Below, piece by piece: positions 1,725 through 17,814 of a stretch of DNA of 64,000 bases. The notes under the pieces were generated by a model. The model was not told the origin of the DNA and ran no database searches. It saw only the letters and a program-made list of their open reading frames with translations. Numbering within the stretch: position 1 is the stretch's first letter; each line of letters opens with the position of its first letter. Origin of the DNA: Escherichia phage A7_1; sequence record OP795442; one strand, given 5' to 3'. Both the position numbers and the translations under genes were made by a program.

Positions 1725-2954
1725 ATGCAAGCAACTTATCAACGTATGGACCAAACCATGTTCAAAAAACGTATCAGTGTTCGTGATATGGAATCACTGA
1801 TTCGCCTAGGAGCTTCCATCGGAAAGACCGTATTCTTTTTTGGTGGCGCTGGTCTTGGTAAGTCTGAAAAAGTAAAACAGATCGCTGATTCCATGTTCCC
1901 ACATCGTGTAGGTAATAACCTTTGTGATGTTCGTCTGTCGGATAAAGAGCCACAAGATATCGCAGGTATTCCGATTCCGATCTCTTATCCAGATCCGAAA
2001 ACTGGTAAAGAAGTCACTCGTACCGTATATGCAGTTCCAAACTTTTGGCCTACTGATCCTGATTGGGAAGGTATCGTGTTCTTGGATGAACTGCCAAATG
2101 CACCATTGGGCACTCAGCACTCTGCATATCAGGTTATTCTTGATCACGTTGCAGGTGAGCATAAGTTCCCGAAAGGTACTGTGTTTGTAGGTGCAGGTAA
2201 CCGTGATACTGATGGAGCAGGGACTACTTCTATGCCTGGCCCATTGGTTAACCGTATGATCATTGCAGAAGTTGATTATAATCTGGATGTGTGGATCGAA
2301 GACTATGCGATTCCGTTCCGTCTGCACCCGAACATTATTGGTTTCTTGAAGCAGTTTCCAGAGCATTTCTATACTGGTGACGTAGAAAACCGAAGTACTC
2401 CGGTTTATTCATCTCCTCGTCAATGGAAAACAGCATCTGACATTCTGTACAAGTATGATGCGGGTGAGATTAATGAATTTATCGCAGAGGTTGCTCTTGC
2501 AGGTACAGTTGGTGAAGGCCTGGAAGTACAGATCCTTGCTTATCATTTACGTGCTAAAGAACTTCCTCCGATTGAAGATATCTTTAGTGGTGCAGTTGAA
2601 GAACATAAACTTGATCGCAGTAAGAACGACCTTGTTTACGTCCTGGCACAAACTGGCCTTCGTCGCATGGAAGATGAGGTTATGGATAATGACATGACGG
2701 ATGATAAGTTCCTTGAACGTGCAGGTAACTTCCTTACGTTCATGTACAATAACTATTATGCAAACAACAAGGATACGATGATTGCTTTGATCTTGGGCGT
2801 GTTCCGTGGTCCAAACGATAAGCCATCTATCTTGACTGTTAACCCGAAACGTCAGAAAATGATTCCGCTTATGCGTAAGAGTTGCCCGACTGTTTCTGCC
2901 GCAGTTATGGAATACATGACTCGATATGGTCAACTGATTAAAGAATTCGAATAA
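1725..2954 (+). CDS. AAA+ ATPase, MoxR/CobS-like
   Basis: 409 aa; Walker A GGAGLGKS, Walker B IVFLDELPNA; SD AAGAGGAG. Confidence 0.8.
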   Translation: MQATYQRMDQTMFKKRISVRDMESLIRLGASIGKTVFFFGGAGLGKSEKVKQIADSMFPHRVGNNLCDVRLSDKEPQDIAGIPIPISYPDPKTGKEVTRTVYAVPNFWPTDPDWEGIVFLDELPNAPLGTQHSAYQVILDHVAGEHKFPKGTVFVGAGNRDTDGAGTTSMPGPLVNRMIIAEVDYNLDVWIEDYAIPFRLHPNIIGFLKQFPEHFYTGDVENRSTPVYSSPRQWKTASDILYKYDAGEINEFIAEVALAGTVGEGLEVQILAYHLRAKELPPIEDIFSGAVEEHKLDRSKNDLVYVLAQTGLRRMEDEVMDNDMTDDKFLERAGNFLTFMYNNYYANNKDTMIALILGVFRGPNDKPSILTVNPKRQKMIPLMRKSCPTVSAAVMEYMTRYGQLIKEFE

Positions 2955-2958
2955 TCTC

Positions 2959-2987
2959 TTGACAACGAAAAACAGTTAACTTAATAT
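2959..2987 (+). promoter_or_regulatory. promoter-like TTGACA-N17-TAATAT
   Basis: hexamers read directly; immediately followed by terminator hairpin. Confidence 0.3.
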
Positions 2988-2992
2988 AAGGG

Positions 2993-3017
2993 CATCTCGA
3001 AAGAGGTGTCCTTTTTT
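2993..3017 (+). terminator. rho-independent terminator (GAAA tetraloop hairpin + T6)
   Basis: CATCTC-GAAA-GAGGTG stem-loop followed by TCCTTTTTT. Confidence 0.55.
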
Positions 3018-3029
3018 AATTTGGAGAAA

Positions 3030-3524
3030 ATGATGGATTTCATAAAAGAAGGATTTTCTTTCGACCCCCTTGCAAAGTTTCTACTAAGGAGAAATGGAAG
3101 AGAAGTAGGGAATGTAGTAAAGAATCATAAAGGTTATGATAAAGACTATGTACGTGTAACATGGTCAAGGGAAAGGAAAAGAAAATCTGCGTATGCTCAC
3201 AGGATCATTTGGGAATTGCATTATGGCAAGATACCTGATGGTTATTGTATAGACCACATAAATGGAGATGGTTTGGATAACAGGATTGAAAACTTAAGAT
3301 TGGCAACTAAGAGTCAGAATGGTCAAAACAGGAAAAACAACAAGAATAAAAAGGATGGTCTTCCTAAAGGTGTAGTTATGAATCATGGAAAATACACAGG
3401 AAGGGTCTATGTAAATGGAAAAAGGTTACAGAAAATTAGTTCCGACCTTGACGAAATAGTCAATTGGTTGGAGAATAAACGTAAAGAAAATCACGGTGTG
3501 TTCATGAACAATGGAGAACAATAA
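3030..3524 (+). CDS. HNH homing endonuclease
   Basis: motif HRIIWELHYGKIP..IDHINGDGLDNRIENLR (HNH with AP2-like tail); ATG 3030 with GGAG SD; track start 3006 is GTG inside terminator. Confidence 0.75.
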   Translation: MMDFIKEGFSFDPLAKFLLRRNGREVGNVVKNHKGYDKDYVRVTWSRERKRKSAYAHRIIWELHYGKIPDGYCIDHINGDGLDNRIENLRLATKSQNGQNRKNNKNKKDGLPKGVVMNHGKYTGRVYVNGKRLQKISSDLDEIVNWLENKRKENHGVFMNNGEQ

Positions 3525-5062
3525 TGTCAAAAATTAGTCAAGAAGAAAAAGATATGATCGAAATGCAAGTCTTCGAAGCTGAACGTATTATTGAAGCTGC
3601 AAGTCTTCAACTTATGCGCTTCAAAGCGTTCTACGGGGTTATGCTTTCGTCTATGCCTGTTAAAAAGGCGACGGAGTGGTGTAGTACAATGGCGACTGAT
3701 GGACGTAACCTGTATTACCATCCAGAGTTCGTTGCAGGTATGACAGAAGAACGTAAAAAATTGGTACTTGAGCGACTTTCCAAATCTGAGAAAGATCCTA
3801 AAAAGCTGAAAGAGGGTATTGAGTTTATCAATGTCTTCTATCGTCGAAAGACTGCTCGTGAGCTTGCTCTTATTCTTGAGCACGAATGCGATCATGTGAT
3901 CTCTGATCACGCTTCTCGTGGTAAAGGGTTTAATCATGAGCTTTACAATATTGCAGCGGATCATCGTATCAATACAACGGCTGTGCTTATTCACCAGAAA
4001 GGGGATGAGCTAGGTAAAGCCTGGTTCCCTGCCGGAGAGAGAACGGTATTTGATAAAAATGCTGAATTTGGATTTATGGCCTGGTCTTACTGTGATTTCC
4101 GATTCAAAGATATGTATACTGAGCAGATCTATGAAATCCTGAATAAAGAGCAAGATGATAAAGAAAAATCCAAAGGGAAAGGTTCTGGTTCTGGAAGTGG
4201 AGAGGGTGATGGTGAAGAAGGTGGTCAAGGTCGTAAAGGTGTTGATCAACACATGGATCAGAATGGTGATCCAGAAGATTCAGAAGGTGATGATATCGAA
4301 GATGCACTGGGAATCGACCGTAAAGCGAAGCCTAAGCAAACAGCAGAGGAACGCCAGTATAACGATGGGGTTATGCGTCGAGCCATTGAGAATGCCGTAC
4401 AGGCAGCAGGAAGCGGTGCACCGGAAGATGCTCGTCGTTTTGTAGAAGCGGCGGGTAAACCAAAGATTAATTATCTTCGTTTGTTGCGTAAAACTATTGA
4501 ACGTCTGTTCAAAGATGATGTATCATATCGTCGTTTGTCACGCCGTAGTCACTCGTTAACTCGGACTCTTCGTGGCTCGGGTTACTTATCTGGACGACAG
4601 ACGATTGGTTTACCCTCAAAGAATAAACAGAAGACTATTCGTGCAGGTGTCTTCTTCGACGTATCTGGATCATTTAACGATGATCTGTTAAGACCAACAA
4701 TGCGTGAGATTCGTGGATTGTGTAATCTTTACGATGAGTTTGAAGTTACAATGGCTTGCTGGTCAACAAAGGTTGGTAACATTGAAACGTATACGAAGAA
4801 GAATGTGAATGAGATTGCTAACTACAAGATCAAGACCACATTTGGTACGGATGTTTCTTGTGTGTTCGAGGCATTAGATGAAATGAAAGACCCTATGGAT
4901 CAGATCATCATCTACACTGACGGTTACTTTGCTGATGTATCCCAAAAGAAAGATTGGGCCAAAAAGTATGGTAAGAATGTTCTTTGGATTATCCTGGGTC
5001 GTGGGTCTTCGTTCACCCCGCCTTTTGGCAAGGCAATTGATTTTGACAAGTATCTTAAATAA
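3524..5062 (+). CDS. von Willebrand factor A domain protein (CobT/ViaA-like partner of the ATPase)
   Basis: 512 aa; MIDAS-like FFDVSGSFND; acidic Gly/Ser-rich linker. Confidence 0.7.
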   Translation: MSKISQEEKDMIEMQVFEAERIIEAASLQLMRFKAFYGVMLSSMPVKKATEWCSTMATDGRNLYYHPEFVAGMTEERKKLVLERLSKSEKDPKKLKEGIEFINVFYRRKTARELALILEHECDHVISDHASRGKGFNHELYNIAADHRINTTAVLIHQKGDELGKAWFPAGERTVFDKNAEFGFMAWSYCDFRFKDMYTEQIYEILNKEQDDKEKSKGKGSGSGSGEGDGEEGGQGRKGVDQHMDQNGDPEDSEGDDIEDALGIDRKAKPKQTAEERQYNDGVMRRAIENAVQAAGSGAPEDARRFVEAAGKPKINYLRLLRKTIERLFKDDVSYRRLSRRSHSLTRTLRGSGYLSGRQTIGLPSKNKQKTIRAGVFFDVSGSFNDDLLRPTMREIRGLCNLYDEFEVTMACWSTKVGNIETYTKKNVNEIANYKIKTTFGTDVSCVFEALDEMKDPMDQIIIYTDGYFADVSQKKDWAKKYGKNVLWIILGRGSSFTPPFGKAIDFDKYLK

Positions 5063-8812: not shown

Positions 8813-9631
8813 ATGGCCTATCGTAAATTTGACCCACTAATCATTTATGAAGTTGTCCCAATGAGTGTCTCCAATCCTCATGGTTTGCAATCACCTACCC
8901 CACTTGACCATAAGACAATGATCAGGAATGCAGAGTACACCTTAAGAGATCTTGAGAACGAAGAGATTGAAAGTGCTGTGCATGGATTGAAAGACCTGAT
9001 CCGTGAACTTGATACGGATGATTCTGTTCAAGAATATATTGAAAAGTCAGAGGCGCTAATCACGAAGTTTCATGAGTACCGCACTAAGGTATCGCGTATT
9101 CTTGATGAAGCTTTTGATCCTTCATCAAAAGACCCGATAAATGATGACAAGGCAATAGCCTTACTCAGCCAAATAGCTGACGCTACTGACAGCATGGACC
9201 CTGGTTTTGTAAGGGCTGATCATACCTGTGTAGATCAGTTTCCTTTAGCCTATCTTAAATCCAAAAAAGCATTCGGTAGTCTGGCTTTTGTCTGGGAGTA
9301 TGAGAAAGATTCCCTTACTCGTTACATCAATCGGGTAGGTAAGAAAGATACTTCAGTTACGTTAAATATCTTTTGTGATGGTTCCTTGATGGTCCATAAC
9401 AACTGGACAAAAGAGAGCATCCTCTTTGGTAAAGAAAGAGATCAGAAATTTAAACTGGTAAACTATATCCGTTTCGCAACAGAGGATAGTAAAATGGGTA
9501 AGTCATTTAAAGAGGAGGACTTTAAAACTTTCTTTGAGGATTGGCTTTCCCCAACAGAAGAAGAGATCCAACTCTTCAAGGCTGTAAATGGGGATGTTTC
9601 GTTCGACCTCTACACACTTTTTAATGAGTGA
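8813..9631 (+). CDS. hypothetical protein
   Basis: 272 aa ORF, SD AGGAG. Confidence 0.6.
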   Translation: MAYRKFDPLIIYEVVPMSVSNPHGLQSPTPLDHKTMIRNAEYTLRDLENEEIESAVHGLKDLIRELDTDDSVQEYIEKSEALITKFHEYRTKVSRILDEAFDPSSKDPINDDKAIALLSQIADATDSMDPGFVRADHTCVDQFPLAYLKSKKAFGSLAFVWEYEKDSLTRYINRVGKKDTSVTLNIFCDGSLMVHNNWTKESILFGKERDQKFKLVNYIRFATEDSKMGKSFKEEDFKTFFEDWLSPTEEEIQLFKAVNGDVSFDLYTLFNE

Positions 9632-9652
9632 TATTTGTTCGCTGAAACAAAT

Positions 9653-9748
9653 TCAGATTTCAGATCCAAAATCTATTTGAGATATTTCCCTGTGATATTT
9701 GTTTCATGGGGAATTTTCAGATTTCAATTTGAAATTCTATTTGAGATA
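9653..9748. repeat. two 33-bp direct repeats (TTCAGATTTCA...TCTATTTGAGATA)
   Basis: copies at 9653-9685 and 9716-9748. Confidence 0.7.
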
Positions 9749-9930
9749 AATTTAAGACTCCTGCCACCGTGCCCCATCCATACTGTGTCATTCCTGCATA
9801 CCTGCACCACTAGATCAACTTAGTTGATGCCCCTCTTACAGACTCACCCTCCAGATTCAATACGTTACTGCTCCACTATACATACGATACAAAGCAAACA
9901 TACGACACTCATGACCAGAATAATTTGAGA

Positions 9931-10094
9931 ACTTGAGAGGTTTTTCATTTTTGAGATCGTAACCTGAAAACTGTGCACGAGAACTTGAGAGGTTTTTCGA
10001 TACAGGGATTAGGAACTTGAGAGCTTTTTCATTTTTGAGTTTGCATTTGAACTTGAGAACTTGAGCTACAGGCCAGATACTTGAGAGGTTTTTC
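9931..10094. repeat. five iteron-like direct repeats ACTTGAGAG(G/C)TTTTTC
   Basis: copies at 9931, 9983, 10015, 10051 (degenerate), 10079; irregular 30-50 bp spacing. Confidence 0.75.
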
Positions 10095-10451
10095 AAATTT
10101 CAGTTTCATTTCAAAATTGAAAAATTTTTCATAAGCATAAAAGTATAGAGGTTGTCAAGGTCTTTGATAAGAAATTTTTCAGGGGGTGAGAATTATTCTC
10201 ATTTGCAAAATAGCGGGCAGGGGTGGTGATTGCCTCGTGAAACCGTCCTCATCACCGTGAATATATAATAGCACCGTTTTTGATTCGAAAGCAACAACAT
10301 TTTAAAAATATTTTTCGGTAAATTTTAGGCGAGCTACCAGCGATTATAGCTATCGATGCCCTTCGGCTATCATCACCCAAGTTTAACGCCGTTGGTAGGC
10401 GATTGTTTTCCTATGTAGGCATTATGGCCCCTGGCGGGGCCGTTGTCAACA

Positions 10452-10730
10452 TTATTTTTTATCTTCTTGCCAGGTAAGAACGCCTAACCAAAAATACACG
10501 TCGCCCTTAGCGTTCGGCGGTATCTTGCTTTCTTTCCCGCCAGCACACGCCCAAAGGTAACCATCGGTAAACGTATCAAGGTAGTCCATATCTTCCACCT
10601 TTCGATCCGCCAGGTTAAGGATAGTATTAACGTCTAAGCCTGTTGCGCTTGCTACCTGGTAGACCGTGCCACCTTGCCAGCCTAACGAGTGCATAAGATG
10701 CAAAGTAGTAGTAGTGGTGATGGTAGTCAT
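10452..10730 (-). CDS. hypothetical protein (antisense to flanking blocks)
   Basis: 92 aa ORF; GGCCCC-TGGC-GGGGCC hairpin just downstream. Confidence 0.45.
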   Translation of the reverse strand: MTTITTTTTLHLMHSLGWQGGTVYQVASATGLDVNTILNLADRKVEDMDYLDTFTDGYLWACAGGKESKIPPNAKGDVYFWLGVLTWQEDKK

Positions 10731-10841
10731 AGTATCGCCCTTTCTTCTGTTGTGCGCCCTGGTTGGCGCGGTAAAAAGACTATAAATGATCTTCCTTTAT
10801 ATGGCAAGGAAAAAGAAAATTAAAAAAGATTGAAAATAATG

Positions 10842-10870
10842 TTGACGTGGTGAATCTGGTAGCGTAGTAT
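10842..10870 (+). promoter_or_regulatory. sigma70-like early promoter TTGACG-N17-TAGTAT
   Basis: hexamers read directly. Confidence 0.5.
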
Positions 10871-10927
10871 TCATCTCATCGAACGGCGACATGCCAACAA
10901 GTAAACAAATAAAAGGGCAACAACAAA

Positions 10928-11113
10928 ATGAATAAAAGAATTACAAACGTAAATCCTGGCGAACGTTTCCAACATGAGGGGCATTTGCACACTGTAGTAA
11001 GCAACAAAGAGCATACTGTAAGAGTAAATAGAAATATCTTGCAACTTCGCGATCGTTTTGGTATCGTACAGACTTACACTTTCGAAGCAAATAAAACAGT
11101 TAAAACTTTCTGA
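10928..11113 (+). CDS. hypothetical small protein
   Basis: 61 aa ORF. Confidence 0.45.
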   Translation: MNKRITNVNPGERFQHEGHLHTVVSNKEHTVRVNRNILQLRDRFGIVQTYTFEANKTVKTF

Positions 11114-11124
11114 GGATTTTTAAA

Positions 11125-11460
11125 ATGGCACTAGTCACTAAGTATTTCATTGAAGGCCAGCAAGCGGCGCAACAAGGTTACAGCCGTGTTACTCGTTACA
11201 AGAAAGAAGAAAACAAGATTGAATTTTTCAAGGGTTACGATAGTGTAAACCGTGATGCAATGGTCCTACGCTTCGAATCCGATCCAGTGGGCAAGCCTGT
11301 TACCTCTTACCAGGCATCACCGCAGATTGTTTATGTTGGTACTGTTAAAGAATGTAACGACAAGTTAATCACTTTGAAGCAGGCCGATCGTGCGGGTTAC
11401 TTTGTTGTTTACACTGCTGACGGTAAGCCTTACCAGTACGAAAGCAAATATTTTAAATAA
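11125..11460 (+). CDS. hypothetical protein
   Basis: 111 aa ORF. Confidence 0.55.
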   Translation: MALVTKYFIEGQQAAQQGYSRVTRYKKEENKIEFFKGYDSVNRDAMVLRFESDPVGKPVTSYQASPQIVYVGTVKECNDKLITLKQADRAGYFVVYTADGKPYQYESKYFK

Positions 11461-11466
11461 AAAGTA

Positions 11467-11495
11467 TTGACAGAAAGAAAGAAGTAAATTAAATT
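11467..11495 (+). promoter_or_regulatory. early promoter TTGACA-N17-TAAATT + 5' hairpin
   Basis: followed by GCCGCA-ATCG-TGCGGC hairpin. Confidence 0.45.
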
Positions 11496-11550
11496 ATACC
11501 ACGTAACGCCGCAATCGTGCGGCAATAAAAACTGATAGGAATTGAACAAA

Positions 11551-11763
11551 ATGGCTAAAATCATCATTAAAAAATCCCGTGTATCTTCTGTTGCTCGCGT
11601 CGAAATGGTAAACACTATGCCAGGTTACCGGACTCGCGAGGAAGCCCGAAGCGTTGCAAAACAGATTAAAGCCCGTGGCTTAACTGTAAGTGCACCGACC
11701 AAAACACAAGAAGGATGGAAGGTATCTATTAAATCCGGTACACTGTCAATCAATAAACACTAA
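11551..11763 (+). CDS. hypothetical small basic protein
   Basis: ATG 11551 (track start 11542 is TTG); 70 aa. Confidence 0.5.
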   Translation: MAKIIIKKSRVSSVARVEMVNTMPGYRTREEARSVAKQIKARGLTVSAPTKTQEGWKVSIKSGTLSINKH

Positions 11764-11825
11764 TAGCCAAAACATTAACGGGGCAACTTTGCCCTCATTA
11801 AATAACATTATCCAGGAGTATTAAC

Positions 11826-11984
11826 ATGACTAGCCAAAACACTAACATTGAAAAAATCAACATTACTAAAGAGCGTAAAGCATGGAATGAAACATTAAAT
11901 CTCAAAGGTAAGAAGCTGAATAAAACTAAACGCGATCGCAGTACAAAGCGGGCCTTTTGTGAATTTACAGCGGATCAAGAGTGA
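11826..11984 (+). CDS. hypothetical small basic protein
   Basis: 52 aa, below track cutoff; SD AGGAG. Confidence 0.4.
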   Translation: MTSQNTNIEKINITKERKAWNETLNLKGKKLNKTKRDRSTKRAFCEFTADQE

Positions 11985-12175
11985 TGATTAAAGTTATTGC
12001 ACTTACTGCTTTATTGTGTATACCATTTTTGGCGCACGGTACTAAGTTTTACGGTGCTAACTTGATAGATTGTAAAGCTCATATGCTGGACCATGAAACA
12101 GGCAACAAATTTCTTAAGCCTTTCCAGATCAATCCAGCGGCATTTAGTGACCGGTGTTTTGTATCAGGAAGGTAA
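11984..12175 (+). CDS. hypothetical small protein with N-terminal signal-like helix
   Basis: ATG overlaps upstream TGA; MIKVIALTALLCIPFLAHG. Confidence 0.4.
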   Translation: MIKVIALTALLCIPFLAHGTKFYGANLIDCKAHMLDHETGNKFLKPFQINPAAFSDRCFVSGR

Positions 12176-12288
12176 AGCCAGTACGCTGATAATGCATTAC
12201 GATCCGACAACAAAGAAAGGTAGTCTATCAATCCAGGTTGGAGAGGTGGAAGAGTTTTCCGGTGAAATAGTCTGTAATTAATATCTTG

Positions 12289-12320
12289 AGGCCCGTCATT
12301 GTACGGGCCTTTTTCTTTTA
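12289..12320 (+). terminator. rho-independent terminator
   Basis: AGGCCCG..CGGGCCT hairpin + TTTTCTTTT. Confidence 0.6.
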
Positions 12321-12343
12321 TGAAAATAATTTTGAAAATGTTG

Positions 12344-12371
12344 TTGACAGTAAAATCGATTCTGTTAAGAT
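12344..12371 (+). promoter_or_regulatory. early promoter TTGACA-N16-TAAGAT + hairpin
   Basis: followed by GTATCACAT and ACGGGGA..TCCCCGT hairpin. Confidence 0.5.
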
Positions 12372-12470
12372 GTATCACATCAGGACGGGGAACGAAGTAA
12401 ACACTCCCCGTTAAGTAGTCCAGGAGTAAGACATACGAAAAACTCCCCTGATAAAAAGATTTAAAAGTGG

Positions 12471-12498
12471 TTGACACAAAATTAAAAACTGTTAAGAT
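12471..12498 (+). promoter_or_regulatory. early promoter TTGACA-N16-TAAGAT + hairpin
   Basis: followed by GTATCACAT and GGCGGCAATAGTGCCGCC hairpin (12510-12527). Confidence 0.55.
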
Positions 12499-12547
12499 GT
12501 ATCACATACGGCGGCAATAGTGCCGCCTCCAACAAAGAGAAATTATC

Positions 12548-12799
12548 ATGGCTAACAAAACTAAAACCACTAAAACTTATAACGGTCACAAAAACAAAAA
12601 TCATTGGAACGTTTCTCTATGGCTTAACAATGATTCATCACTTTACCAGCTGGCGAAAGAATTTATTAACGCTAACACTAATCGTAATGATGCGGCGCGG
12701 GATATGATGATTTTTCTGGAACAAACTGGACAATATAAAACTCCAGACGGTTTCAAGTACAGCACTACGGCGATCCGTGCTGCAATGGTTGGAATGTAA
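12548..12799 (+). CDS. hypothetical protein, paralogue of 14366..14605
   Basis: 83 aa; shares HKNK.HWNVSLW and C-terminal TPDGFKYSTTAIRAAMVGM with 14366..14605. Confidence 0.6.
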   Translation: MANKTKTTKTYNGHKNKNHWNVSLWLNNDSSLYQLAKEFINANTNRNDAARDMMIFLEQTGQYKTPDGFKYSTTAIRAAMVGM

Positions 12800-12855
12800 T
12801 ATTCAATACTGTAACAATGGCGGGATTAGTTCCCGCCTTTGCGGAGAAATATCTA

Positions 12856-13143
12856 ATGAGCAAAGTAATTGACTGTAAAGTGTTAACCAAATCATTGTCA
12901 ATCAGTGAGTGCACCAATGGTTATTGGCTTTATGATGAAACACGCGGCATGAATCTAGCTATGGAAGCTAAAACGGCTGAGGCGGCGTATGTGCAAGCCC
13001 TGGAATACTACCAGAGACGTTTAAAGGAAGTAGAAAACAATTATCAGAATCTCAAAGAGAAAGTAGATCATTTCGTTGGTCAATTCGTTGACGATGACGA
13101 GGAAGACGGGCACTACTGCAACCGCTGCGGATCTTACAGTTAA
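12856..13143 (+). CDS. hypothetical protein
   Basis: ATG 12856 with SD GGAGAAA; track start 12817 lies in hairpin element. Confidence 0.5.
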   Translation: MSKVIDCKVLTKSLSISECTNGYWLYDETRGMNLAMEAKTAEAAYVQALEYYQRRLKEVENNYQNLKEKVDHFVGQFVDDDEEDGHYCNRCGSYS

Positions 13144-13147
13144 GTAC

Positions 13148-13175
13148 TTGCAATTAGTTTTAAGTACTGTATAAT
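13148..13175 (+). promoter_or_regulatory. early promoter TTGCAA-N16-TATAAT + hairpin
   Basis: followed by GCGGGAATAGTTCCCGC hairpin. Confidence 0.5.
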
Positions 13176-13229
13176 GTTTTACATCGAGAGCGGGAATAGT
13201 TCCCGCCTCACATCAAAGAGATTAAAATT

Positions 13230-13457
13230 ATGGCTATCCTTATTGTTCGTGTATCCGGTACAGTTGGTAACTCCCAGGTTGTAGCAGTTGTAACAAGCAA
13301 AAAGATTAATGAATCTTCTAAAATCTTGAACGAATGGGCCGTTGCTAACTTTGGTCAATGGTCGAGCGTCGAGTATCTCGAATCTTACCAGGTGCCAACT
13401 ATTAGCCTAACCGATCTCAATGTTGATCGCCTGTTATGCCTGGATGAATTGATTTAA
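13230..13457 (+). CDS. hypothetical protein
   Basis: 75 aa ORF. Confidence 0.5.
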   Translation: MAILIVRVSGTVGNSQVVAVVTSKKINESSKILNEWAVANFGQWSSVEYLESYQVPTISLTDLNVDRLLCLDELI

Positions 13458-13464
13458 AAAGTAG

Positions 13465-13492
13465 TTGCAAAGTAAAACGAATAAAGTATAAT
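13465..13492 (+). promoter_or_regulatory. early promoter TTGCAA-N16-TATAAT + hairpin
   Basis: followed by GGGGGAGAAATGATTCTCCCC hairpin. Confidence 0.5.
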
Positions 13493-13541
13493 ACATTACA
13501 TCAGGGGGAGAAATGATTCTCCCCACTAAAAGGAAACTAAA

Positions 13542-13685
13542 ATGAAAACTTGTCAGTGTGGTAAAAAGTCTATTGCTGGTCTGCGTCGCGGTGTTGCTTT
13601 ATGCCAGTATCATTACAATAGTCAAGTATGGGGTAAAACGTGGGCTGACCAGGTTGAAGCAGCAAAGAAAGCAAAAAGTAATTGA
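13542..13685 (+). CDS. hypothetical small Cys-containing protein
   Basis: 47 aa below track cutoff; SD AAAAGGAAA; CQCG...LCQYH. Confidence 0.4.
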   Translation: MKTCQCGKKSIAGLRRGVALCQYHYNSQVWGKTWADQVEAAKKAKSN

Positions 13686-13709
13686 CAGCAAGAAGAAAAA
13701 GAGTAAACT
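13682..13709 (+). promoter_or_regulatory. early promoter TTGACA-N16-TAAACT + hairpin
   Basis: followed by GTATTACGTAG and GGCGGCAATAGCGCCGCC. Confidence 0.5.
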
Positions 13710-13762
13710 GTATTACGTAGGGCGGCAATAGCGCCGCCACATCAAAGATAGAGAGAATCAAA

Positions 13763-13981
13763 ATGGCCAATATCCGCACTGTACTGAAAAATGCAAAACA
13801 AGTTTTATTTTCTGACGATGAATATTTTAATCGCAATATCAAAGGCGTTCGGAACATTGAGGATGTAAAGGAATTATTTGGAATCAAAGGTAACGTATAT
13901 CGTAAAGGATTGCACGGTAATAATTTTGAATATAAGTTGGCTGATAGTGATTATAATTTTACACTGACCACCATTAGTTGA
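13763..13981 (+). CDS. hypothetical protein
   Basis: 72 aa ORF. Confidence 0.55.
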   Translation: MANIRTVLKNAKQVLFSDDEYFNRNIKGVRNIEDVKELFGIKGNVYRKGLHGNNFEYKLADSDYNFTLTTIS

Positions 13982-14000
13982 AAGTTTTAACCTAGCGCTA

Positions 14001-14029
14001 TTGACTTAAGCCGATAGTGCTGGCATAAT
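14001..14029 (+). promoter_or_regulatory. early promoter TTGACT-N17-CATAAT
   Basis: hexamers read directly. Confidence 0.5.
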
Positions 14030-14061
14030 AACTTTTATCAAGAACATCAAAGGAAAGTAAA

Positions 14062-14274
14062 ATGGCTATCATTACTAAAATCAAAGTAAACAAAACACTG
14101 GTTAAGCTGGAAGAAGTGAAAGCAGGTTATAAAGTATCTTGGTGTGGCATGTATCGGATGTTCACAGATATAGACGATGCAATCAATTACTACACTAACA
14201 CGATTAAAAACTTTGTTCGTGCTGATGTGATTATTGCAGTGGAAGCACATAAAGCATCGAAAGAAAGTAAGTAA
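14062..14274 (+). CDS. hypothetical protein
   Basis: 70 aa ORF. Confidence 0.55.
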   Translation: MAIITKIKVNKTLVKLEEVKAGYKVSWCGMYRMFTDIDDAINYYTNTIKNFVRADVIIAVEAHKASKESK

Positions 14275-14293
14275 AATTATTACCACAGTACTA

Positions 14294-14322
14294 TTGACAA
14301 CTACTGATAGTACTGACATAAT
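14294..14322 (+). promoter_or_regulatory. early promoter TTGACA-N17-CATAAT
   Basis: near-duplicate of promoter at 14001. Confidence 0.5.
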
Positions 14323-14365
14323 AACTTTTATCAAGTAGTACAAATCAAAAAGAGAGAATATCATC

Positions 14366-14605
14366 ATGGCTAAATCTAAAACTTTCAACGATCACAAAAA
14401 CAAAACTCATTGGAATGTTTCCTTGTGGATTAATAATGGTGAAGCACTGTATCGGCTTGCTCAAAATTGCATTGCACAAAGTAAAACTAAAGATATTGCT
14501 GCGGAATGTATGTACCGCAGATTAAAAGCGAACGGCACTACAACAACGCCGGACGGATTTAAGTATAGCACCACTGCGATCCGTGCCGCGATGGTTGGAA
14601 TGTAA
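14366..14605 (+). CDS. hypothetical protein, paralogue of 12548..12799
   Basis: 79 aa; identical C-terminal 19 residues to 12548..12799 product. Confidence 0.6.
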   Translation: MAKSKTFNDHKNKTHWNVSLWINNGEALYRLAQNCIAQSKTKDIAAECMYRRLKANGTTTTPDGFKYSTTAIRAAMVGM

Positions 14606-14624
14606 AAAGAAAAAGTAAAAGTAG

Positions 14625-14653
14625 TTGACACAAAGAAACAAAACAAGTAAATT
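14625..14653 (+). promoter_or_regulatory. early promoter TTGACA-N17-TAAATT + hairpin
   Basis: followed by ATCACATCAG and GCGGGGAATGGCCCCGC. Confidence 0.5.
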
Positions 14654-14703
14654 AATCACATCAGGCGGGGAATGGCCCCGCTAAAAGAGAAGAGAGAAAT
14701 CAA

Positions 14704-15036
14704 ATGAGCTTTTTATCTATCGTGCAGACTAACTTTGAAAATGATTTTATTGCTCAAGCTATCAACATTGACAAAGGTATCCCAAATATCAATTTTGGTT
14801 TTAATAGTGGTGGTTATGAGAGATACCAGTATTTTGTAACTGACGATGGAAGTGTTTTAGGTATCAATACGGTGATGGCTAATATCCAAAACATTAATTT
14901 CAATGATCCCGATGAGCGCTCATTCTATATCGTCGGTATCCAGGTGAACTACAATGATGACTCTTTAATCGATGATTACACTGGCGAGACGTTAGAGAGT
15001 GCTTACGGTGATGAATCAGAAGAAGAAGAAGAATAA
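14704..15036 (+). CDS. hypothetical acidic protein
   Basis: 110 aa; C-terminal poly-Glu from (GAA)5. Confidence 0.55.
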   Translation: MSFLSIVQTNFENDFIAQAINIDKGIPNINFGFNSGGYERYQYFVTDDGSVLGINTVMANIQNINFNDPDERSFYIVGIQVNYNDDSLIDDYTGETLESAYGDESEEEEE

Positions 15037-15050
15037 GATTAAAAAAGTAG

Positions 15051-15079
15051 TTGACTGAAAGAGTATAAAGAAGTAAGAT
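15051..15079 (+). promoter_or_regulatory. early promoter TTGACT-N17-TAAGAT + hairpin
   Basis: followed by GGGGGAAACATCTTCCCCC. Confidence 0.5.
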
Positions 15080-15136
15080 AATTAACGAATAGGGGGAAAC
15101 ATCTTCCCCCATAAACAAAAGAAAGAGAGATTAAAA

Positions 15137-15319
15137 ATGACAGAACTGATTGCAACTACAAAGATCGAAGGCGTTAACGATGTTACTTTGTCCTATGATC
15201 CTTCTACTCTGGTTTATGTTGTGAAATATGGCAGAATGATCGCAGAACTTGATTGCATTGATGAGGCTTTCGAAAAATATTTCGAACTTATCAATATTGC
15301 TTATGATGACTACCGTTAA
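15137..15319 (+). CDS. hypothetical protein
   Basis: 60 aa ORF. Confidence 0.5.
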   Translation: MTELIATTKIEGVNDVTLSYDPSTLVYVVKYGRMIAELDCIDEAFEKYFELINIAYDDYR

Positions 15320-15349
15320 TATACAACGCAAAAATAGAAAGGTGATAAA

Positions 15350-15559
15350 ATGATCAATGAAAAAACAATCAATGACGTTCGAGAGGAAGTTTTAGCCGTT
15401 GCCGTAGAATCTGGCGCACGTCAGGCATTTTGGAAAGCTACTGATCTTTACCCTGAGCAAGCCGAAAATATTCTCAATCAGGTCAGCGTTAAACTTGAAA
15501 AAATGGGAAAACTGAAAACAAGTGAGCGCCTCGACCAAATCATTAAAGAAAGTTTTTGA
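15350..15559 (+). CDS. hypothetical protein
   Basis: 69 aa ORF, SD AAAGGTGA. Confidence 0.5.
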   Translation: MINEKTINDVREEVLAVAVESGARQAFWKATDLYPEQAENILNQVSVKLEKMGKLKTSERLDQIIKESF

Positions 15560-15588
15560 TTGACTTTTAACATTGCCCCTATTAGTAT
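15560..15588 (+). promoter_or_regulatory. early promoter TTGACT-N17-TAGTAT with hairpin overlapping -10
   Basis: GCCCCT..AGGGGC stem-loop 15575-15596. Confidence 0.45.
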
Positions 15589-15623
15589 TCAGGGGCAAGA
15601 TTAAAAGAAACAAGGACACAAAG

Positions 15624-15935
15624 ATGAATGATATTGTTAGCATCATAGGTTTACTCGGCATAGGTTACATCGCCACATCAATTACAATGAGTTACTTCAA
15701 TAAAAGGCGTGATAAAATGTTTTGTTACTTTGAATACCGTTACCGTGGTAAGGTTGGATCATCCCGTGACTATGGTCCGATGTTAGAGATTGATGCGGTA
15801 GGAGCAATGCAGTATCGCCAGTCACTTGGGGCTGAGATAATTTTTGAAGTGTACCGCAGTACAGAAGAAGAGATCCACGACATTATTGACGAGCGTCAAT
15901 ATTACCACGAACAACAAACTAAACGCAGGGCTTAA
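15624..15935 (+). CDS. hypothetical membrane protein
   Basis: ATG 15624 (SD AAGGA); N-terminal hydrophobic helix; track start 15573 lies in promoter. Confidence 0.5.
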   Translation: MNDIVSIIGLLGIGYIATSITMSYFNKRRDKMFCYFEYRYRGKVGSSRDYGPMLEIDAVGAMQYRQSLGAEIIFEVYRSTEEEIHDIIDERQYYHEQQTKRRA

Positions 15936-16085
15936 CATATGACTAATACAAACCGACAAAAAATCATCAAAACTAAAAAACTTGATTTCAATACTTATCA
16001 AGAATGTAAGAAGAAGAAAGTAAAAGATAAGCGAGAGAACAAGCGGCACGAATGGATCACTAATACAATCGATCTTTAACAATCA

Positions 16086-16115
16086 AGGCCCGCTATAATG
16101 TGGGCCTTTCTTTAT
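16086..16115 (+). terminator. rho-independent terminator
   Basis: AGGCCCGC..GTGGGCCT hairpin + TTCTTTA. Confidence 0.55.
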
Positions 16116-16126
16116 GGAGAACAGAC

Positions 16127-16354
16127 ATGATTAATATTCTTTCACTTACAGAAGTGATCCGCTTCCTCAAAAACAACGCCCTGGGAACGTCTATAGCGTA
16201 TCTAATCCCTCAAGGTAAAGATTATGCCAGCGTTACACGTTCAATCACTGCTACGGCTTCCAGGGAAGAAATAAAGGTCAGCGTAAGCCAATTGTTGATT
16301 GTTGATCCATCATCTTGCGAGACTATCCAGGCAGTAAAGATAATTAGAAAATAA
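16127..16354 (+). CDS. hypothetical protein
   Basis: ATG 16127 with SD GGAGAA. Confidence 0.5.
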   Translation: MINILSLTEVIRFLKNNALGTSIAYLIPQGKDYASVTRSITATASREEIKVSVSQLLIVDPSSCETIQAVKIIRK

Positions 16355-16367
16355 TTTAAAAAACTTC

Positions 16368-16396
16368 TTGCATCCATTATTGAGAGGATGTATATT
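16368..16396 (+). promoter_or_regulatory. early promoter TTGCAT-N17-TATATT
   Basis: hexamers read directly. Confidence 0.45.
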
Positions 16397-16440
16397 AGTT
16401 TCATCAAGACGAAATGATGATAATCAAAAGGTGATTGCTA

Positions 16441-16733
16441 TGTTATACGAAGTTTTTGCAGGTTTCTGTTTTTATGGTGCTGCCGCCGTTCGCCAGTGTG
16501 ATGATTATGTAGTTGAATCATTCGATGATCCTTTGGCGTGTGAGATTGTTACTACGGCGTATGAGCAAGATCGCCGTTGGATTAATCCGGCCTGTATCGC
16601 ATCGCCTGAGGTTGAACCTATGCCGGAAGGTGAGGAATTAACAGAGGAAGACTTGCAAGAAGTAAAAGAAGTTATGAGCTACATGATTGATAATCTGGAC
16701 GCTGAAAACTTACAACGTGCATTGCAAAAATAA
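16441..16733 (+). CDS. hypothetical acidic protein
   Basis: ATG 16441 with SD AAGGTGA. Confidence 0.5.
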
Positions 16734-16748
16734 TTTAAAAAAAAGTAG

Positions 16749-16777
16749 TTGACTCGAAGAAACAAAACAAGTAAATT
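16749..16777 (+). promoter_or_regulatory. early promoter TTGACT-N17-TAAATT + hairpin
   Basis: near-copy of promoter at 14625 incl. GCGGGGAATGGCCCCGC. Confidence 0.5.
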
Positions 16778-16821
16778 ATTCACATCAGGCGGGGAATGGC
16801 CCCGCTGAACAAAAAGAGATT

Positions 16822-17202
16822 ATGAAAATGGCTAAAAATACTAACGTTTGTGATTACGCTGATCTGGTTACTCTGAATGCAGATTCTAAAATCAACCTGT
16901 CAAACGTGGAAGCGGTGCACGTCCTGGCCCGCCGCTGGTTCCAAAAGTTATATGGTAATACTTATTTCTCTTTAAGTGTAGATGTGGAGATCGCTGGTAA
17001 ATTGGTAGAAGTAGTTAACGTCCCGTTTACATATGGTTATGGTGATCATTTCGATACCGTGGCACTGGAAGAATTTAGCAAGGTTATCAACATGGAAGGA
17101 AAAGAGTTTTCAGAGTATAGTTACCTTTCCCGTTTTTGCCGTGACAATAACATCCCTGTTTATTCGAACGCTGTTGATGTTAAACGCAAAAAAGATATGT
17201 AA
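16822..17202 (+). CDS. hypothetical protein
   Basis: 126 aa ORF. Confidence 0.6.
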   Translation: MKMAKNTNVCDYADLVTLNADSKINLSNVEAVHVLARRWFQKLYGNTYFSLSVDVEIAGKLVEVVNVPFTYGYGDHFDTVALEEFSKVINMEGKEFSEYSYLSRFCRDNNIPVYSNAVDVKRKKDM

Positions 17203-17208
17203 TTATTA

Positions 17209-17236
17209 TTGACAGTACATAGAAAACAAGTAAACG
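17209..17236 (+). promoter_or_regulatory. early promoter TTGACA-N16-TAAACG + hairpin
   Basis: followed by GTATTACATAG and GCGGGAACACTTCCCGC. Confidence 0.45.
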
Positions 17237-17289
17237 GTATTACATAGAAAGCGGGAACACTTCCCGCTTATATTCCAGGAGTAAGAGAA

Positions 17290-17541
17290 ATGATCGAACA
17301 AATCAAAACTACGACGGCTAATGTAACGGGTACAATATCGCACTTTATTAGTGATGAATCGCGGGGCGTTCCTTATTGTGCAGTACATGTAAACAAAAAT
17401 GGCGACTACTGGTTAACGGCGTATGGATCTTATTCTTTCGGACGTAGTGCACACCAAAAGATCCTGGATAAAGTACAACCAACGGGTAAAAATATTACCG
17501 CTGAGATGTTTAATAAATCACTTGCAAAGTTAAAAGCGTAA
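17290..17541 (+). CDS. hypothetical protein
   Basis: 83 aa, SD CCAGGAG. Confidence 0.55.
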   Translation: MIEQIKTTTANVTGTISHFISDESRGVPYCAVHVNKNGDYWLTAYGSYSFGRSAHQKILDKVQPTGKNITAEMFNKSLAKLKA

Positions 17542-17549
17542 AGTATAAT
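17522..17549 (+). promoter_or_regulatory. early promoter TTGCAA-N16-TATAAT + hairpin
   Basis: overlaps end of upstream CDS; followed by GGCGGGGAGTGTTTCCCCGCC. Confidence 0.45.
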
Positions 17550-17602
17550 ACATCACATCAGGCGGGGAGTGTTTCCCCGCCACAAAATGAAAGGCCAACA
17601 AA

Positions 17603-17782: not shown

Positions 17783-17785
17783 TAG

Positions 17786-17814
17786 TTGACGCAAAGGTCA
17801 TTTTAATTTAATCT
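17786..17814 (+). promoter_or_regulatory. promoter-like TTGACG-N17-TAATCT
   Basis: hexamers read directly. Confidence 0.35.

Follow-up and report, generated by a model that had tools for sequence, protein, structure and literature searches.

A syntenic non-coding block of rV5- and phi92-like phages, probably a composite control region at the head of the early-gene array

The 64,000-nucleotide stretch analysed here (hereafter, the window; record OP795442, Escherichia phage A7_1) comes from a Septuagintavirus-type phage of the Vequintavirinae and shares 99.7% identity with Escherichia phage A5-4. At 9632-10451 it carries a block without a convincing gene, bounded by a + strand gene (8813..9631) and an antisense ORF (10452..10730). 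The block combines a co-oriented repeat array, an AT-rich tract, one Fur-type palindrome, ~250 bp of conserved DNA and a predicted leftward promoter (hereafter, P_left). Judging from these sequence features, it is probably a composite DNA control region that acts in cis and stands where the early-gene array begins, and its role is probably that of a replication origin or an early control region. Our best guess, with a probability of about 35%, is that it is the primary replication origin of the phage, of the transcription-activated kind; an early transcription-control hub appears nearly as likely.

Results

Position and layout of the block in relatives

A preliminary description of this DNA had reported direct repeats, interpreted them as a protein-binding array instead of a CRISPR, offered an origin, a transcription-factor array or an injection stop as its function, and named a lack of conservation in relatives as grounds for giving up that idea. 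The repeats are real, and they are part of a ~800-bp non-coding region that hundreds of rV5- and phi92-like phages carry at this position and that is bordered on the right, as described, by the lone antisense gene. Position, copy number and architecture are kept across the Vequintavirinae and Stephanstirmvirinae, and the general idea of a protein-binding array seems to hold. A CRISPR array, which would consist of identical 24-48-bp repeats at regular intervals, separated by unique spacers about as long, was rightly dismissed: the units are 16-20 bp long, their spacing is uneven (32-64 bp), and the "spacers" are themselves partly repeated. The position near 10 kb had also raised the possibility of a T5-like phage, which was rejected given the assignment to the Vequintavirinae.

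At least 10 lineages from two subfamilies (window-type, Hena1, PVP-SE1, CR3/KaOmega/phiTE, rV5, phi92/BME3, phiWec179/Schickermooser and three IMG/VR lineages) share this layout and its syntenic position. Its order is GATATTTG boxes, a spacer, three to five genus-specific units (with a period of 63-78 bp in the relatives), one to five Fur-type palindromes, ~250 bp of conserved DNA and a leftward sigma-70 promoter. The sub-blocks share 74-84% nucleotide identity between genera, and the flanking proteins are much less conserved (16-21% identity for the 272-aa protein and ~48% for a 111-aa protein). Between phage W70 and the window phage, the non-coding block is 94.6% identical and the adjacent antisense gene is, by eye, far more diverged. 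The plasmid and E. coli collections searched gave no match beyond one of 74 bp in a 137.6-kb "plasmid", which is probably an rV5-like phage. Most records of the family annotate nothing in the block or call small ORFs, which look spurious in this lineage.

Left edge and spacer

The left edge consists of two 57-nt direct repeats on the + strand (module A; 9628-9684 and 9692-9748), 75% identical in the repeat analysis, each with a GTGATATTTGT box at its start and CAGATTTCA and TCTATTTGAGATA motifs after it. The two 33-bp units described earlier at 9653-9748 are the cores of these repeats, so the repetition was seen correctly and its length was underestimated. In alignment, 9653-9747 showed 74-77% identity to un-annotated DNA of Certrevirus phages, and in every genus examined the homologous block has GATATTT boxes on its left edge or a short way inside it. 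Elsewhere in the window, paired GATATTTG boxes are present only at 26316 and 26339.

The following spacer (module B; 9750..9920) is G-poor, with 12% G and 33% C on the + strand, and differs in sequence from genus to genus. In rV5 the spacer is likewise G-poor; by eye, rV5, PVP-SE1 and phiWec179 also have C-rich spacers, and phi92 and Hena1 do not. Within module B, the palindrome ATCAACT-T-AGTTGAT occupies 9814-9828; its arms had been recognised before (at about 9811), with a TAG spacer that is in fact a single nucleotide. A73 and W70, both close relatives, have no intact copy of the palindrome, which is therefore probably a chance occurrence.

The iteron-like array and the AT-rich tract

The array (module C; 9927..10094, + strand) comprises four copies of (GAGA)ACTTGAGAG[G/C]TTTTTC and a truncated doublet. 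The ACTTGAGAG[G/C]TTTTTC sequences start at 9931, 9983, 10015 and 10079, and the extended unit GAGAACTTGAGAGGTTTTTC occupies 9927-9946, 9979-9998, 10011-10030 and 10075-10094 (spacing 52/32/64). Five copies had been counted previously; four are full, and the supposed fifth is the truncated doublet ACTTGAGA-ACTTGAGC (ACTTGAGAACTTGAGC; 10051-10066), which has no TTTTTC tail. The rest of the 64 kb contains only one match to the extended unit, with 3 mismatches. A general promoter motif was rejected as an explanation, as the iteron itself is found nowhere else in the window. The bias in orientation is extreme: between 9632 and 10100 (469 bp), the + strand carries 11 copies of TTGAG and the - strand none, against an expectation of 0.45 (Poisson P ~3e-12), and this is the densest such cluster in the window.

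Among the relatives, the unit core is of the ACTTGAGAG, TCTCGATCG or TTATTTAAAG type. The core of Erwinia phage Hena1 is identical to that of the window, and units of 63-78 bp based on GTTCTCGATCG...ATCGTATT...GAAAAATTTTT are present in rV5, PVP-SE1, CR3, KaOmega and the three IMG/VR lineages. The core thus varies between genera while the unit tail and the copy number persist, as expected of a site that co-evolves with a specificity protein. The array sites may descend from a GTTCTCGATCGAGAAC-type palindrome that in this lineage became GAGAAC-TTGAGAG, and such a descent would point to a dimeric, sequence-specific protein. The window units are degenerate compared with those of relatives, with the ATCGTA sub-motif in the first only and the GAAAAATTTTTC dyad in the last only.

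An AT-rich tract (10095..10183) with TTTTTC/GAAAAA dyads (inverted repeats I4 and I6; for example TGAAAAATTTTTCA at 10118-10131) adjoins the array. Its segment 10101-10183 (83 bp) is 73% A+T, in a phage that is AT-rich throughout (~60%). A GAAAAA(A)TTTTTC palindrome closes each repeat unit in PVP-SE1, Hena1 and rV5. Coding sequences are annotated over the array in A5-4, A73, W70 and LTH01; the overlapping ORF in the window (9857..10096) has a TTG start and no ribosome-binding site, and it is split in UPEC06. A small protein gene over the iterons or in the conserved DNA further right was rejected, given that the ORFs are not conserved and the loop-length indels are not multiples of 3.

A Fur-box-type palindrome

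Next to the AT-rich tract is a perfect 7-1-7 palindrome of the Fur-box type, TGAGAATTATTCTCA (module D; 10187..10201), which the preliminary description had missed. By sequence it matches the Fur-box consensus, and the 64 kb contain no other perfect match to TGAKAATNATTMTCA. One to five Fur-type boxes were found at the same relative position in all nine blocks compared (9/9). The palindrome of the relatives, AATGAGAATCATTCTCATT, is exactly the consensus published for the Xanthomonas Fur box, AATGAgAATcATTctCATT (PMC1790865), and an iron box given for Gram-negative bacteria reads GATAATGAGAATCATTATT (PMC10665472). On a crude E. coli-type matrix, TGAGAATTATTCTCA scored 13.3 bits, which is at the bottom of the training range and ranks 5-6 in the window; the window copy GGTGAGAATTATTCTCATT agrees with the E. 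coli 19-mer at 14 of 19 positions (manual count).

Module D has the same 7-1-7 geometry as Fur boxes (19-bp GATAATGATAATCATTATC; 7-1-7 form TGATAATnATTATCA), and the relatives' blocks, with up to five boxes, resemble strong Fur operators, where boxes are clustered. Unlike Fur operators, it is located in the non-coding DNA of a virulent phage with no clear overlapping promoter, which is unusual. Candidate promoter hexamers flank the box on both strands and are poorly conserved; they would form a weak promoter over it, either on the + strand (TTGAAT-18-CAGAAT in most genera) or on the - strand (GAGACA-18-TATTCT). A phage-encoded protein may recognise the same dyad as Fur. Neither Fur-type palindromes nor GATATTTG boxes are confined to the block: further examples lie within or close to the Schickermooser terminal repeat, close to where the BME3 record begins and at 26.3 kb of the window, suggesting that both are general regulatory motifs and not origin-specific.

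The conserved core and its promoters

The preliminary description had treated the last 300 bp simply as non-coding sequence. Non-coding it is, and it is also the most widely conserved part of the block, which had been overlooked: a 291-bp query, the homologous segment of PVP-SE1, matched 361 phage records (211 over ≥80%), most of them unannotated there. Within this core (module E; 10202..10420), conservation is widest at 10202-10274 (TTTGCAAAATAGCGGGCAGGGGTGGTGATTGCCTC...). The patch at 10345-10398 is specific to the window phage and A5-4, with one hairpin substituted for another. A stretch of ~50 bp from the Fur-type box through CAGAATAGCGGGCAGG to GGTGATTGTCTC is conserved in primary sequence and has no conserved pairing partner. 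This unit is tandemly duplicated in rV5, which retains the block except for the GC-rich part of module E.

A stable RNA fold for module E was rejected. Its folding energy had a z-score of ~0 relative to shuffled sequence on both strands, the RNAalifold consensus was weak with a covariation term of only -0.38 kcal/mol, and covariation was modest (3 pairs changed on both sides, chiefly AU:16/GC:7 at one pair). An Rfam 15 scan of the window block and four relatives yielded no relevant match at E ≤1.

P_left (10449..10421, - strand), likewise missed earlier, is a predicted early sigma-70 promoter, TTGACA-17-CATAAT (11/12 match), with an upstream AAAATAATG motif and an UP-like tract. Its predicted start is near 10414, and it reads leftward into the block. 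The upstream motif is shared with the + strand promoter at 10842 (inverted repeat I1). The early-promoter consensus of Certrevirus is AAAA-N3-TGTTGAC-N19-TATAAT (PMC7344957); P_left and the promoter at 10842-10870 are assigned to this family because both have AAAATAATG-TTGAC and the -10 hexamer. P_left differs from the rest of these promoters in that no conserved gene follows it and in its leftward direction, which is unique in the early region: among ~25 such promoters in 10.8-24.4 kb, no other is on the - strand. It is kept in KaOmega, CR3, phi92 and rV5, again with no conserved ORF downstream, and persists in lineages that have no antisense gene. To the right of that gene lies a predicted divergent pair, TTGCCA-17-TATAGT (10807..10779, - strand) for the antisense gene and TTGACG-17-TAGTAT (10842-10870, + strand) as the first promoter of the early-gene array. 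The segment 10779..10870 is nearly invariant among close relatives and has 79.5% identity in phiWec179. The promoter/terminator scan found no terminator.

Flanking genes

The lone antisense gene (10452..10730, - strand; 92 aa) neighbours the block and probably lies outside its core. The protein had tblastn matches in 151 phage records and belongs to phrog_19316 (unknown function). It had been proposed as a candidate DNA-binding protein for the repeats, and the comparison speaks against this: the gene is absent from Certrevirus (KaOmega, CR3) and unannotated there in rV5, and the block is kept in both. Moreover, the protein is ~75% identical to that of phi92-like phages, whose units differ completely, and its AF2 model (pLDDT 91.5) resembles no DNA-binding fold, with no significant match in the PDB.

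The upstream protein (272 aa here; ~275 aa in syntenic relatives) precedes the block in every case compared. It has no Pfam or PDB relative, is in phrog_12463 (unknown function), and had one homologue cluster in a large protein search; its single-sequence AF2 model (pLDDT 38) is unusable. These results give no support to a role as initiator. Its divergence does not track the iteron type, given that the window phage and Hena1 share the core and their proteins are 16% identical.

The genome terminus

The genome terminus probably lies at ~24-27 kb of the window, not at the block; the terminal repeat is predicted at about 25-27 kb, in the neighbourhood of the GATATTTG pair at 26316/26339. The terminal repeats of Gotham (459 bp, annotated) and Schickermooser (328 bp) are flanked by genes that map to 22.1-24.3 kb, and in Schickermooser the block is ~13.5 kb from the terminal repeat. 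The LTH01 record is cut at a point corresponding to window position ~10335, and some records start nearby; a terminus or terminal repeat at the block, suspected from that cut, was rejected on the basis of the mapped genes. The RUS_R7 record carries an "attL" annotation.

Discussion

In the family literature examined we found no description of origins, early switches or non-coding elements; the Septuagintavirus paper mentions neither termini, promoters, direct repeats nor an origin of replication, and the literature search turned up no relevant transcriptome of these phages. In the reading that we favour, the AT-rich and iteron DNA would be opened or primed by early transcription starting at P_left, and the G-poor template beyond it (9750-9920) would help the transcript to stay stably hybridised to the DNA. 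An iteron-binding protein, and possibly host Fur as well, may shape or gate the site. This reading is supported by a motif cluster that is unique in the 64 kb and strongly oriented, by the conserved order of the modules at a syntenic position with three to five units throughout, and by non-coding DNA that outlasts the flanking genes. It is also consistent with P_left pointing into DNA without a conserved ORF, with the 73% A+T tract adjoining the array and the 12% G segment downstream in the direction of P_left, and with the block not being the terminus. Against it, the host-origin hallmarks are missing: eight of nine homologous blocks had no conserved match to the DnaA box TTATCCACA at ≤1 mismatch (some had none at all), and the IHF consensus WATCAANNNNTTR was found in 0 of 9. 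The unit spacing, unlike that of classical iterons (~22 bp), and the Fur-type and GATATTTG motifs elsewhere weaken it further. GC skew showed no inflection at the block, a measure confounded here by gene orientation, and no recognisable initiator gene was found nearby.

T4 ori(uvsY) and ori(34), the T7 primary origin and ColE1 all rely on a promoter that transcribes into non-coding, AT-rich DNA. The block resembles these origins (in ColE1, RNA II) in having a strong host-type promoter, here a predicted one, that faces non-coding AT-rich DNA, in a G-poor downstream template from which the RNA would be G-rich, and in being a single-copy element in the window. It differs in its iteron array and Fur-type boxes, which those origins do not have, and its promoter is known from sequence alone. 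Lambda ori has four dyad-symmetric O-binding sites and an AT-rich tract, and P1 oriR and pSC101/R6K are iteron origins. With these the block shares three to five dyad-derived, binding-type repeats next to an AT-rich tract, as well as a lineage-specific repeat sequence in a conserved layout. Iteron origins have a period of ~20-22 bp, compared with 32-64 bp here and 63-78 bp in the relatives; the pattern of at least three direct repeats of ~17-22 bp in helical phase (~11 or 22 bp) is not seen in the block. Unlike iteron origins, the block also has no DnaA or IHF site, no adjoining recognisable initiator gene and no similarity to plasmids.

A tentative alternative is that the block is a hub for early transcription control, with operator arrays for a phage regulator (the iterons) and host Fur (the palindromes) that would act on P_left, on the divergent promoters or on the weak promoter overlapping the Fur-type box, and would set the timing of the early-to-middle switch or couple it to iron status. 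The block stands between two gene arrays that both run rightward and bears three predicted promoters, and the ~50-bp stretch from the Fur-type box to GGTGATTGTCTC is conserved in the manner of a promoter-operator. Motifs of the palindrome and GATATTTG types are seen again in the other large stretch of non-coding DNA, close to the terminus, which also fits such a hub better than a unique origin. However, the promoters over the box are poorly conserved (the window has no -35, and several lineages lack the A at -10 position 2), the array is far for operators (320-490 bp from P_left and ~750-940 bp from the early-array promoter), and P_left has no evident product to express. It is possible, at rather long odds, that the early control or origin region of the Vequintavirinae and Stephanstirmvirinae (several hundred genomes) has recruited host Fur. 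In that case iron would gate early transcription or replication, or phage DNA would titrate Fur and so derepress host iron uptake, through clusters of one to five boxes beside lineage-specific iterons and an early promoter, in some genera also in or beside the terminal repeats. Less likely than the hub is a non-coding RNA locus, where P_left would make an early untranslated RNA with the conserved 5' part, module E, as the functional unit. Such an RNA might act in cis, as a leader or antitermination-type element, or in trans as a small RNA, and the repeats could be RNA-level motifs (a protein or RNA sponge). A consensus early promoter without a downstream ORF is what such a locus would have, and the ~100 nt just downstream of P_left are 75-87% identical across two subfamilies. 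One hairpin keeps its pairing through the two-sided AU/GC changes and through loop-length variation, and in the window phage it is swapped for GATAGCC-GAAG-GGCATC; the tested structure pairs in 92.9% of cells, compared with 16-42% for slid partners. The shuffled-sequence folding energies, the slight covariation with two-sided changes in 3 pairs only, the empty Rfam and terminator results and the loss of the GC-rich part in rV5 argue against an RNA, as does the uneven repeat spacing, which is unlike that of ToxI-type repeat RNAs. ToxI or pseudo-ToxI repeats were rejected because of this irregularity and because the phiTE block homologue is at ~39.6 kb and the pseudo-ToxI locus at 106.7 kb.

Two further explanations have much lower probability. 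In phage T5, the first-step-transfer DNA makes up ~8% of the genome, and non-coding DNA rich in repeats lies at its end. A comparable pause in DNA entry, with the early array entering first and transfer halting at the block until early proteins are made, appears very improbable here. The points in its favour are positional. The block does share with the T5 injection stop region a repeat-rich non-coding character, a position ~8-10% from the end and a place at the boundary of promoter-dense small early genes: it lies ~14-16 kb (~10% of a 145-kb genome) from the predicted terminus, and the DNA between is packed with ~25 host-type early promoters transcribing toward the end. In contrast to T5, these phages have terminal repeats of ~330-510 bp, not ~10 kb, and the block has no DnaA boxes; the genes upstream of it have host-type promoters too, and the family literature examined does not mention two-step transfer. 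Hardly credible at all is the idea that the repeats are decaying or due to chance, as remnants of duplications or of a degraded gene for which the overlapping ORF 9857..10096 might stand. The degenerate window units and the coding sequences annotated over the array would fit decay, and it already fails because the block is conserved in distant relatives, with its architecture kept over two subfamilies. The TTGAG enrichment and strand bias, the higher conservation of the block than of the antisense gene between W70 and the window phage, repeat spacings that are not multiples of 3, and the split ORF with its TTG start all contradict it as well.

Phages of this family (rV5-, PVP-SE1-, CR3-, phAPEC8- and phi92-like) are among the coliphages and phages of Salmonella, Klebsiella and Cronobacter that are isolated most frequently for therapy or biocontrol. 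A defined, conserved cis-element would give a target for mapping the replication origin of these phages, would let mis-annotated ORFs be fixed in hundreds of records, and would serve as an engineering handle, for example for safe insertion sites or replication-dependent reporters. If the Fur-type boxes are real, they would constitute an unexpected tie between host iron physiology and the development of lytic phages.

A repeat-bearing non-coding block in the early region

In the window, the genes between 0.5 and 24.3 kb read rightward and those between 28 and 64 kb leftward. No convincing gene was found in an 820-bp gap (9632-10451, hereafter the block), which is flanked by a gene for a 272-aa protein (8813..9631, + strand) and a lone antisense gene (10452..10730, - strand). 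Over 9400-10900, Escherichia phage A5-4 was 99.7% identical to the window, and UPEC06, A73, W70 and LTH01 (all Vequintavirinae) were 88-96% identical. The clade of the window phage was described as 'Septuagintavirus' (PMC11370258), in a paper with no mention of termini, promoters, direct repeats or a replication origin.

The direct repeats seen here in a preliminary description are real, and they reach wider than could be seen from the sequence alone, being part of a widely conserved, putative control block. The array reported as five units comprises four extended units, GAGAACTTGAGAGGTTTTTC, at 9927, 9979, 10011 and 10075 (spacing 52/32/64), and one truncated doublet, ACTTGAGA-ACTTGAGC, at 10051-10066. 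With up to three mismatches allowed to the 16-mer, the whole 64 kb otherwise held a single match, with three mismatches. In 469 bp, the + strand had 11 copies of the TTGAG core (expected 0.45, P about 3e-12) and the - strand had none; elsewhere in the window, 470-bp stretches of either strand came nowhere near this density. The two repeats reported as 33 bp long belong, as cores, to a pair of 57-nt repeats (75% identical), and a reported palindrome has a spacer of T rather than TAG (ATCAACT-T-AGTTGAT, 9814-9828); because substitutions in A73 and W70 break this palindrome, we treat it as chance. At 10187-10201 is a perfect palindrome of 7-1-7 form, TGAGAATTATTCTCA, and nothing else in the window matches TGAKAATNATTMTCA perfectly. 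The block also has an AT-rich tract (10101-10183, 73% A+T) with GAAAAA/TTTTTC dyads and a G-poor segment (9750-9920; G 12%, C 33%).

A CDS annotated over the array (A54_61, 9857..10096, - strand) is probably not a real gene, because the distances between the repeats are not divisible by three and UPEC06 has the ORF in split form. Hypothetical-protein ORFs over the repeat arrays, at 9857-10096 (-) and 9635-9823 (+), are annotated in A5-4, A73, W70, LTH01 or UPEC06; given their TTG starts, the lack of a ribosome-binding site and the lack of frame conservation, they are probably annotation artefacts.

Conservation of the block across genera

A distant blastn search with the block revealed two islands, 9653-9747 and 10170-10274, kept in un-annotated DNA of other genera. 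We compared the syntenic gaps of KaOmega, CR3, PVP-SE1, phi92, Hena1, phiWec179, BME3, Schickermooser, phiTE, rV5 and 15 IMG/VR contigs, and the module order was identical in all of them. GATATTT(G) boxes come first, no more than about 80 bp from the upstream gene's stop codon; next are a spacer of little conservation, rich in C in several lineages, and an array of three to five repeat units. These are followed by between one and five 7-1-7 palindromes, some 250 bp of conserved DNA and, last, the leftward promoter. The repeat units of relatives have a period of 63-78 bp and in most lineages are built on GTTCTCGATCG...ATCGTATT...GAAAAATTTTT, some copies being the full palindrome TCTCGATCGAGA; phi92-like phages use TTATTTAAAGTTTTT in its place. 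The core ACTTGAGrGGTTTTTC is common to the window and Erwinia phage Hena1, which belongs to a different genus, and GAGAAC-TTGAGAG in the window retains the right half-site (C)GAGAAC of the ancestral palindrome.

Module E is the conserved non-coding core (10202..10420 in the window). Its PVP-SE1 version, of 291 bp, matched 361 phage records, and in 211 of these the match covered at least 80% of that length. Between genera, non-coding identity (74-84%) exceeded that of the flanking proteins (16-21% for the syntenic ~275-aa protein, about 48% for a 111-aa early protein). The preliminary description had counted a lack of repeat conservation in relatives, together with a lack of binding or replication activity, as evidence against a protein-binding array; since both the architecture and the non-coding DNA are conserved between genera, such conservation is clearly present. 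One record matched by the PVP-SE1 query, PQ002170.1 (vB_Sen_SG_WM_RUS_R7), has a Demerecviridae taxonomy line, matches as closely as other PVP-SE1-type Seunavirus records, and carries an 'attL' repeat_region (12-91), odd in a virulent phage.

Promoters and neighboring genes

P_left, a predicted leftward promoter (10449..10421, - strand), has the form TTGACA-17-CATAAT (11/12 matches). It is conserved with or without the antisense gene in the lineage, and the ~100 nt downstream are highly conserved. A long inverted repeat (10445-10468/10823-10846) consists of two opposed copies of AAAATAATGTTGAC, a motif that spans the upstream and -35 parts of the early promoters and fits the Certrevirus early-promoter consensus (PMC7344957). 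About 25 such predicted promoters lie on the + strand at 10.8-24.4 kb, and the one at 10449 is the sole left-facing one. The early region (10800-24400) is very promoter-dense, with about one of these sigma-70-type promoters, preceded by AT-rich tracts, per small gene; several overlap hairpins resembling the terminator of the preceding gene (e.g. 15560, 18315).

The 92-aa antisense product, proposed earlier as a possible binder of the repeats, is present in 151 phage records, most of them from Stephanstirmvirinae; we found no family assignment for it, and its predicted fold (pLDDT 91.5) had no significant PDB match. It is a poor candidate, because its gene is missing from Certrevirus and not annotated there in rV5, both of which retain the block, and because it does not co-vary with iteron type. 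By eye, the W70 antisense gene is far more diverged from window 10452-10730 than its surroundings are, and the non-coding DNA on both sides is ~95% identical to the window, giving a sharp mosaic boundary. The antisense gene may be autoregulated at two dyads that are also conserved in phi92 and phiWec179: GCGCC-CTGGTT-GGCGC, in its 5' leader (10736-10775), and TTCCTT-N9-AAGGAA, over the -35 in its promoter region.

The 272-aa protein encoded upstream of the block evolves fast and belongs to a syntenic family without assigned function. Farther upstream (1725-5062), an HNH endonuclease gene splits genes that encode an ATPase (phrog_1297) and a protein with VWA-like and DUF2201 metallopeptidase-like domains; the ATPase-endonuclease pair also occurs upstream of the block in phi92.

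Fur-box-type palindromes

The commonest palindrome in relatives, AATGAGAATCATTCTCATT, has the 7-1-7 geometry of Fur-family operators and is letter for letter the Xanthomonas campestris Fur-box consensus, AATGAgAATcATTctCATT (PMC1790865); a published list of Gram-negative iron boxes includes GATAATGAGAATCATTATT (PMC10665472). One or more such boxes were present at a similar offset in every block examined, with five in phi92. With a crude matrix from 11 listed boxes, the window copy scored 13.3 bits, at the lower limit of the training range, and the window also had four chance sites with equal or higher scores. The box is kept across phages with greatly diverged proteins, which is compatible with, and no proof of, a conserved host protein as its reader. 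Perfect Fur-type 7-1-7 palindromes also lie inside or next to terminal repeats in Stephanstirmvirinae: they occur within the Schickermooser repeat (1-330 and 2172-2500 of the sequence segments L016 and L017), where one is directly beside a GATATTTG box, and near the start of the BME3 record (55-69 and 250-264).

Possible roles of the block

Published terminal repeats of these phages are short: 458-459 bp for Vequintavirus, 514 bp for KPP-1, 328 bp for Schickermooser and 342 bp for BME3. The block was rejected as the genome end: the genes that adjoin the annotated Gotham repeat and the Schickermooser repeat have homologues at 22.1-24.3 kb of the window, which places the expected terminus within the large non-coding stretch at ~24.4-27 kb, some 14-16 kb right of the block. 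This stretch between the rightward and leftward gene blocks (24300-27150, ~2.8 kb without convincing genes) should hold the physical end and a short terminal repeat; it has repeat families of its own, with 30-mers at 25533, 26348 and 26383, tandem 21-mers at 26065-26106, a dyad-like pair at 26169 and 26198, and a GATATTTG box pair at 26316 and 26339 that resembles GATATTTGGGAAT inside the Schickermooser terminal repeat.

The geometry of the repeats excludes CRISPR, as already proposed, and the phiTE pseudo-ToxI locus was rejected as the identity of the block. No known Rfam family matched, the DnaA and IHF consensus sequences were absent from nine homologous blocks examined, and plasmid and E. 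coli chromosomal sequences held no relative apart from one probable phage record. The latter (CP057073.1), a 137.6-kb E. coli 'plasmid' from cattle faeces that matched in the conserved core, is probably the genome of an rV5-like phage that was deposited as a plasmid.

The comparisons establish a conserved, single-copy, multi-module cis-element with strongly orientation-biased, lineage-specific repeat cores and a conserved predicted early promoter that reads into gene-less DNA. We tentatively rank first a transcription-activated origin (probability about 0.35), in which a strong early promoter would fire into non-coding, AT-rich, repeat-laden DNA and then a G-poor template, because this would explain the aim of the promoter, the G-poor template, and the uniqueness of the element and its conservation above that of flanking genes. 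An early transcription-control hub is possible and nearly as likely as the origin, a reading favored by the fact that the palindrome and the GATATTTG box recur near the terminus.

A functional early non-coding RNA is possible but less likely, and a T5-like entry pause is improbable. Support for RNA structure in module E is modest: one hairpin has a compensatory change (AU:16/GC:7) and varying loop length, folding energies are those of shuffled sequence, and the consensus fold is weak. A 50-bp patch in the window and A5-4 (10345-10398) has an unrelated hairpin in place of the conserved one. Shared with A5-4 alone, the patch is wholly different from the majority sequence (GATCCACCTT...GTTAGCCCCGCC) of UPEC06, A73, W70 and LTH01 and can still form a hairpin; the similarity of its flanks to the Hena1 version (ACCAACGGCG) suggests recombination with a Hena1-like lineage, one that also has the ACTTGAGAGG repeat core. 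Adjoining the palindrome, CAGAATAGCGGGCAGG..GGTGATTGTCTC is conserved in primary sequence with no conserved pairing partner and is duplicated along with its box in rV5, which points to recognition at the DNA level; weak promoter-like hexamers are readable there on either strand.

We found no description of this widely conserved, candidate control block in the literature cited on these phages, and its most surprising possibility is the putative Fur-box reading.
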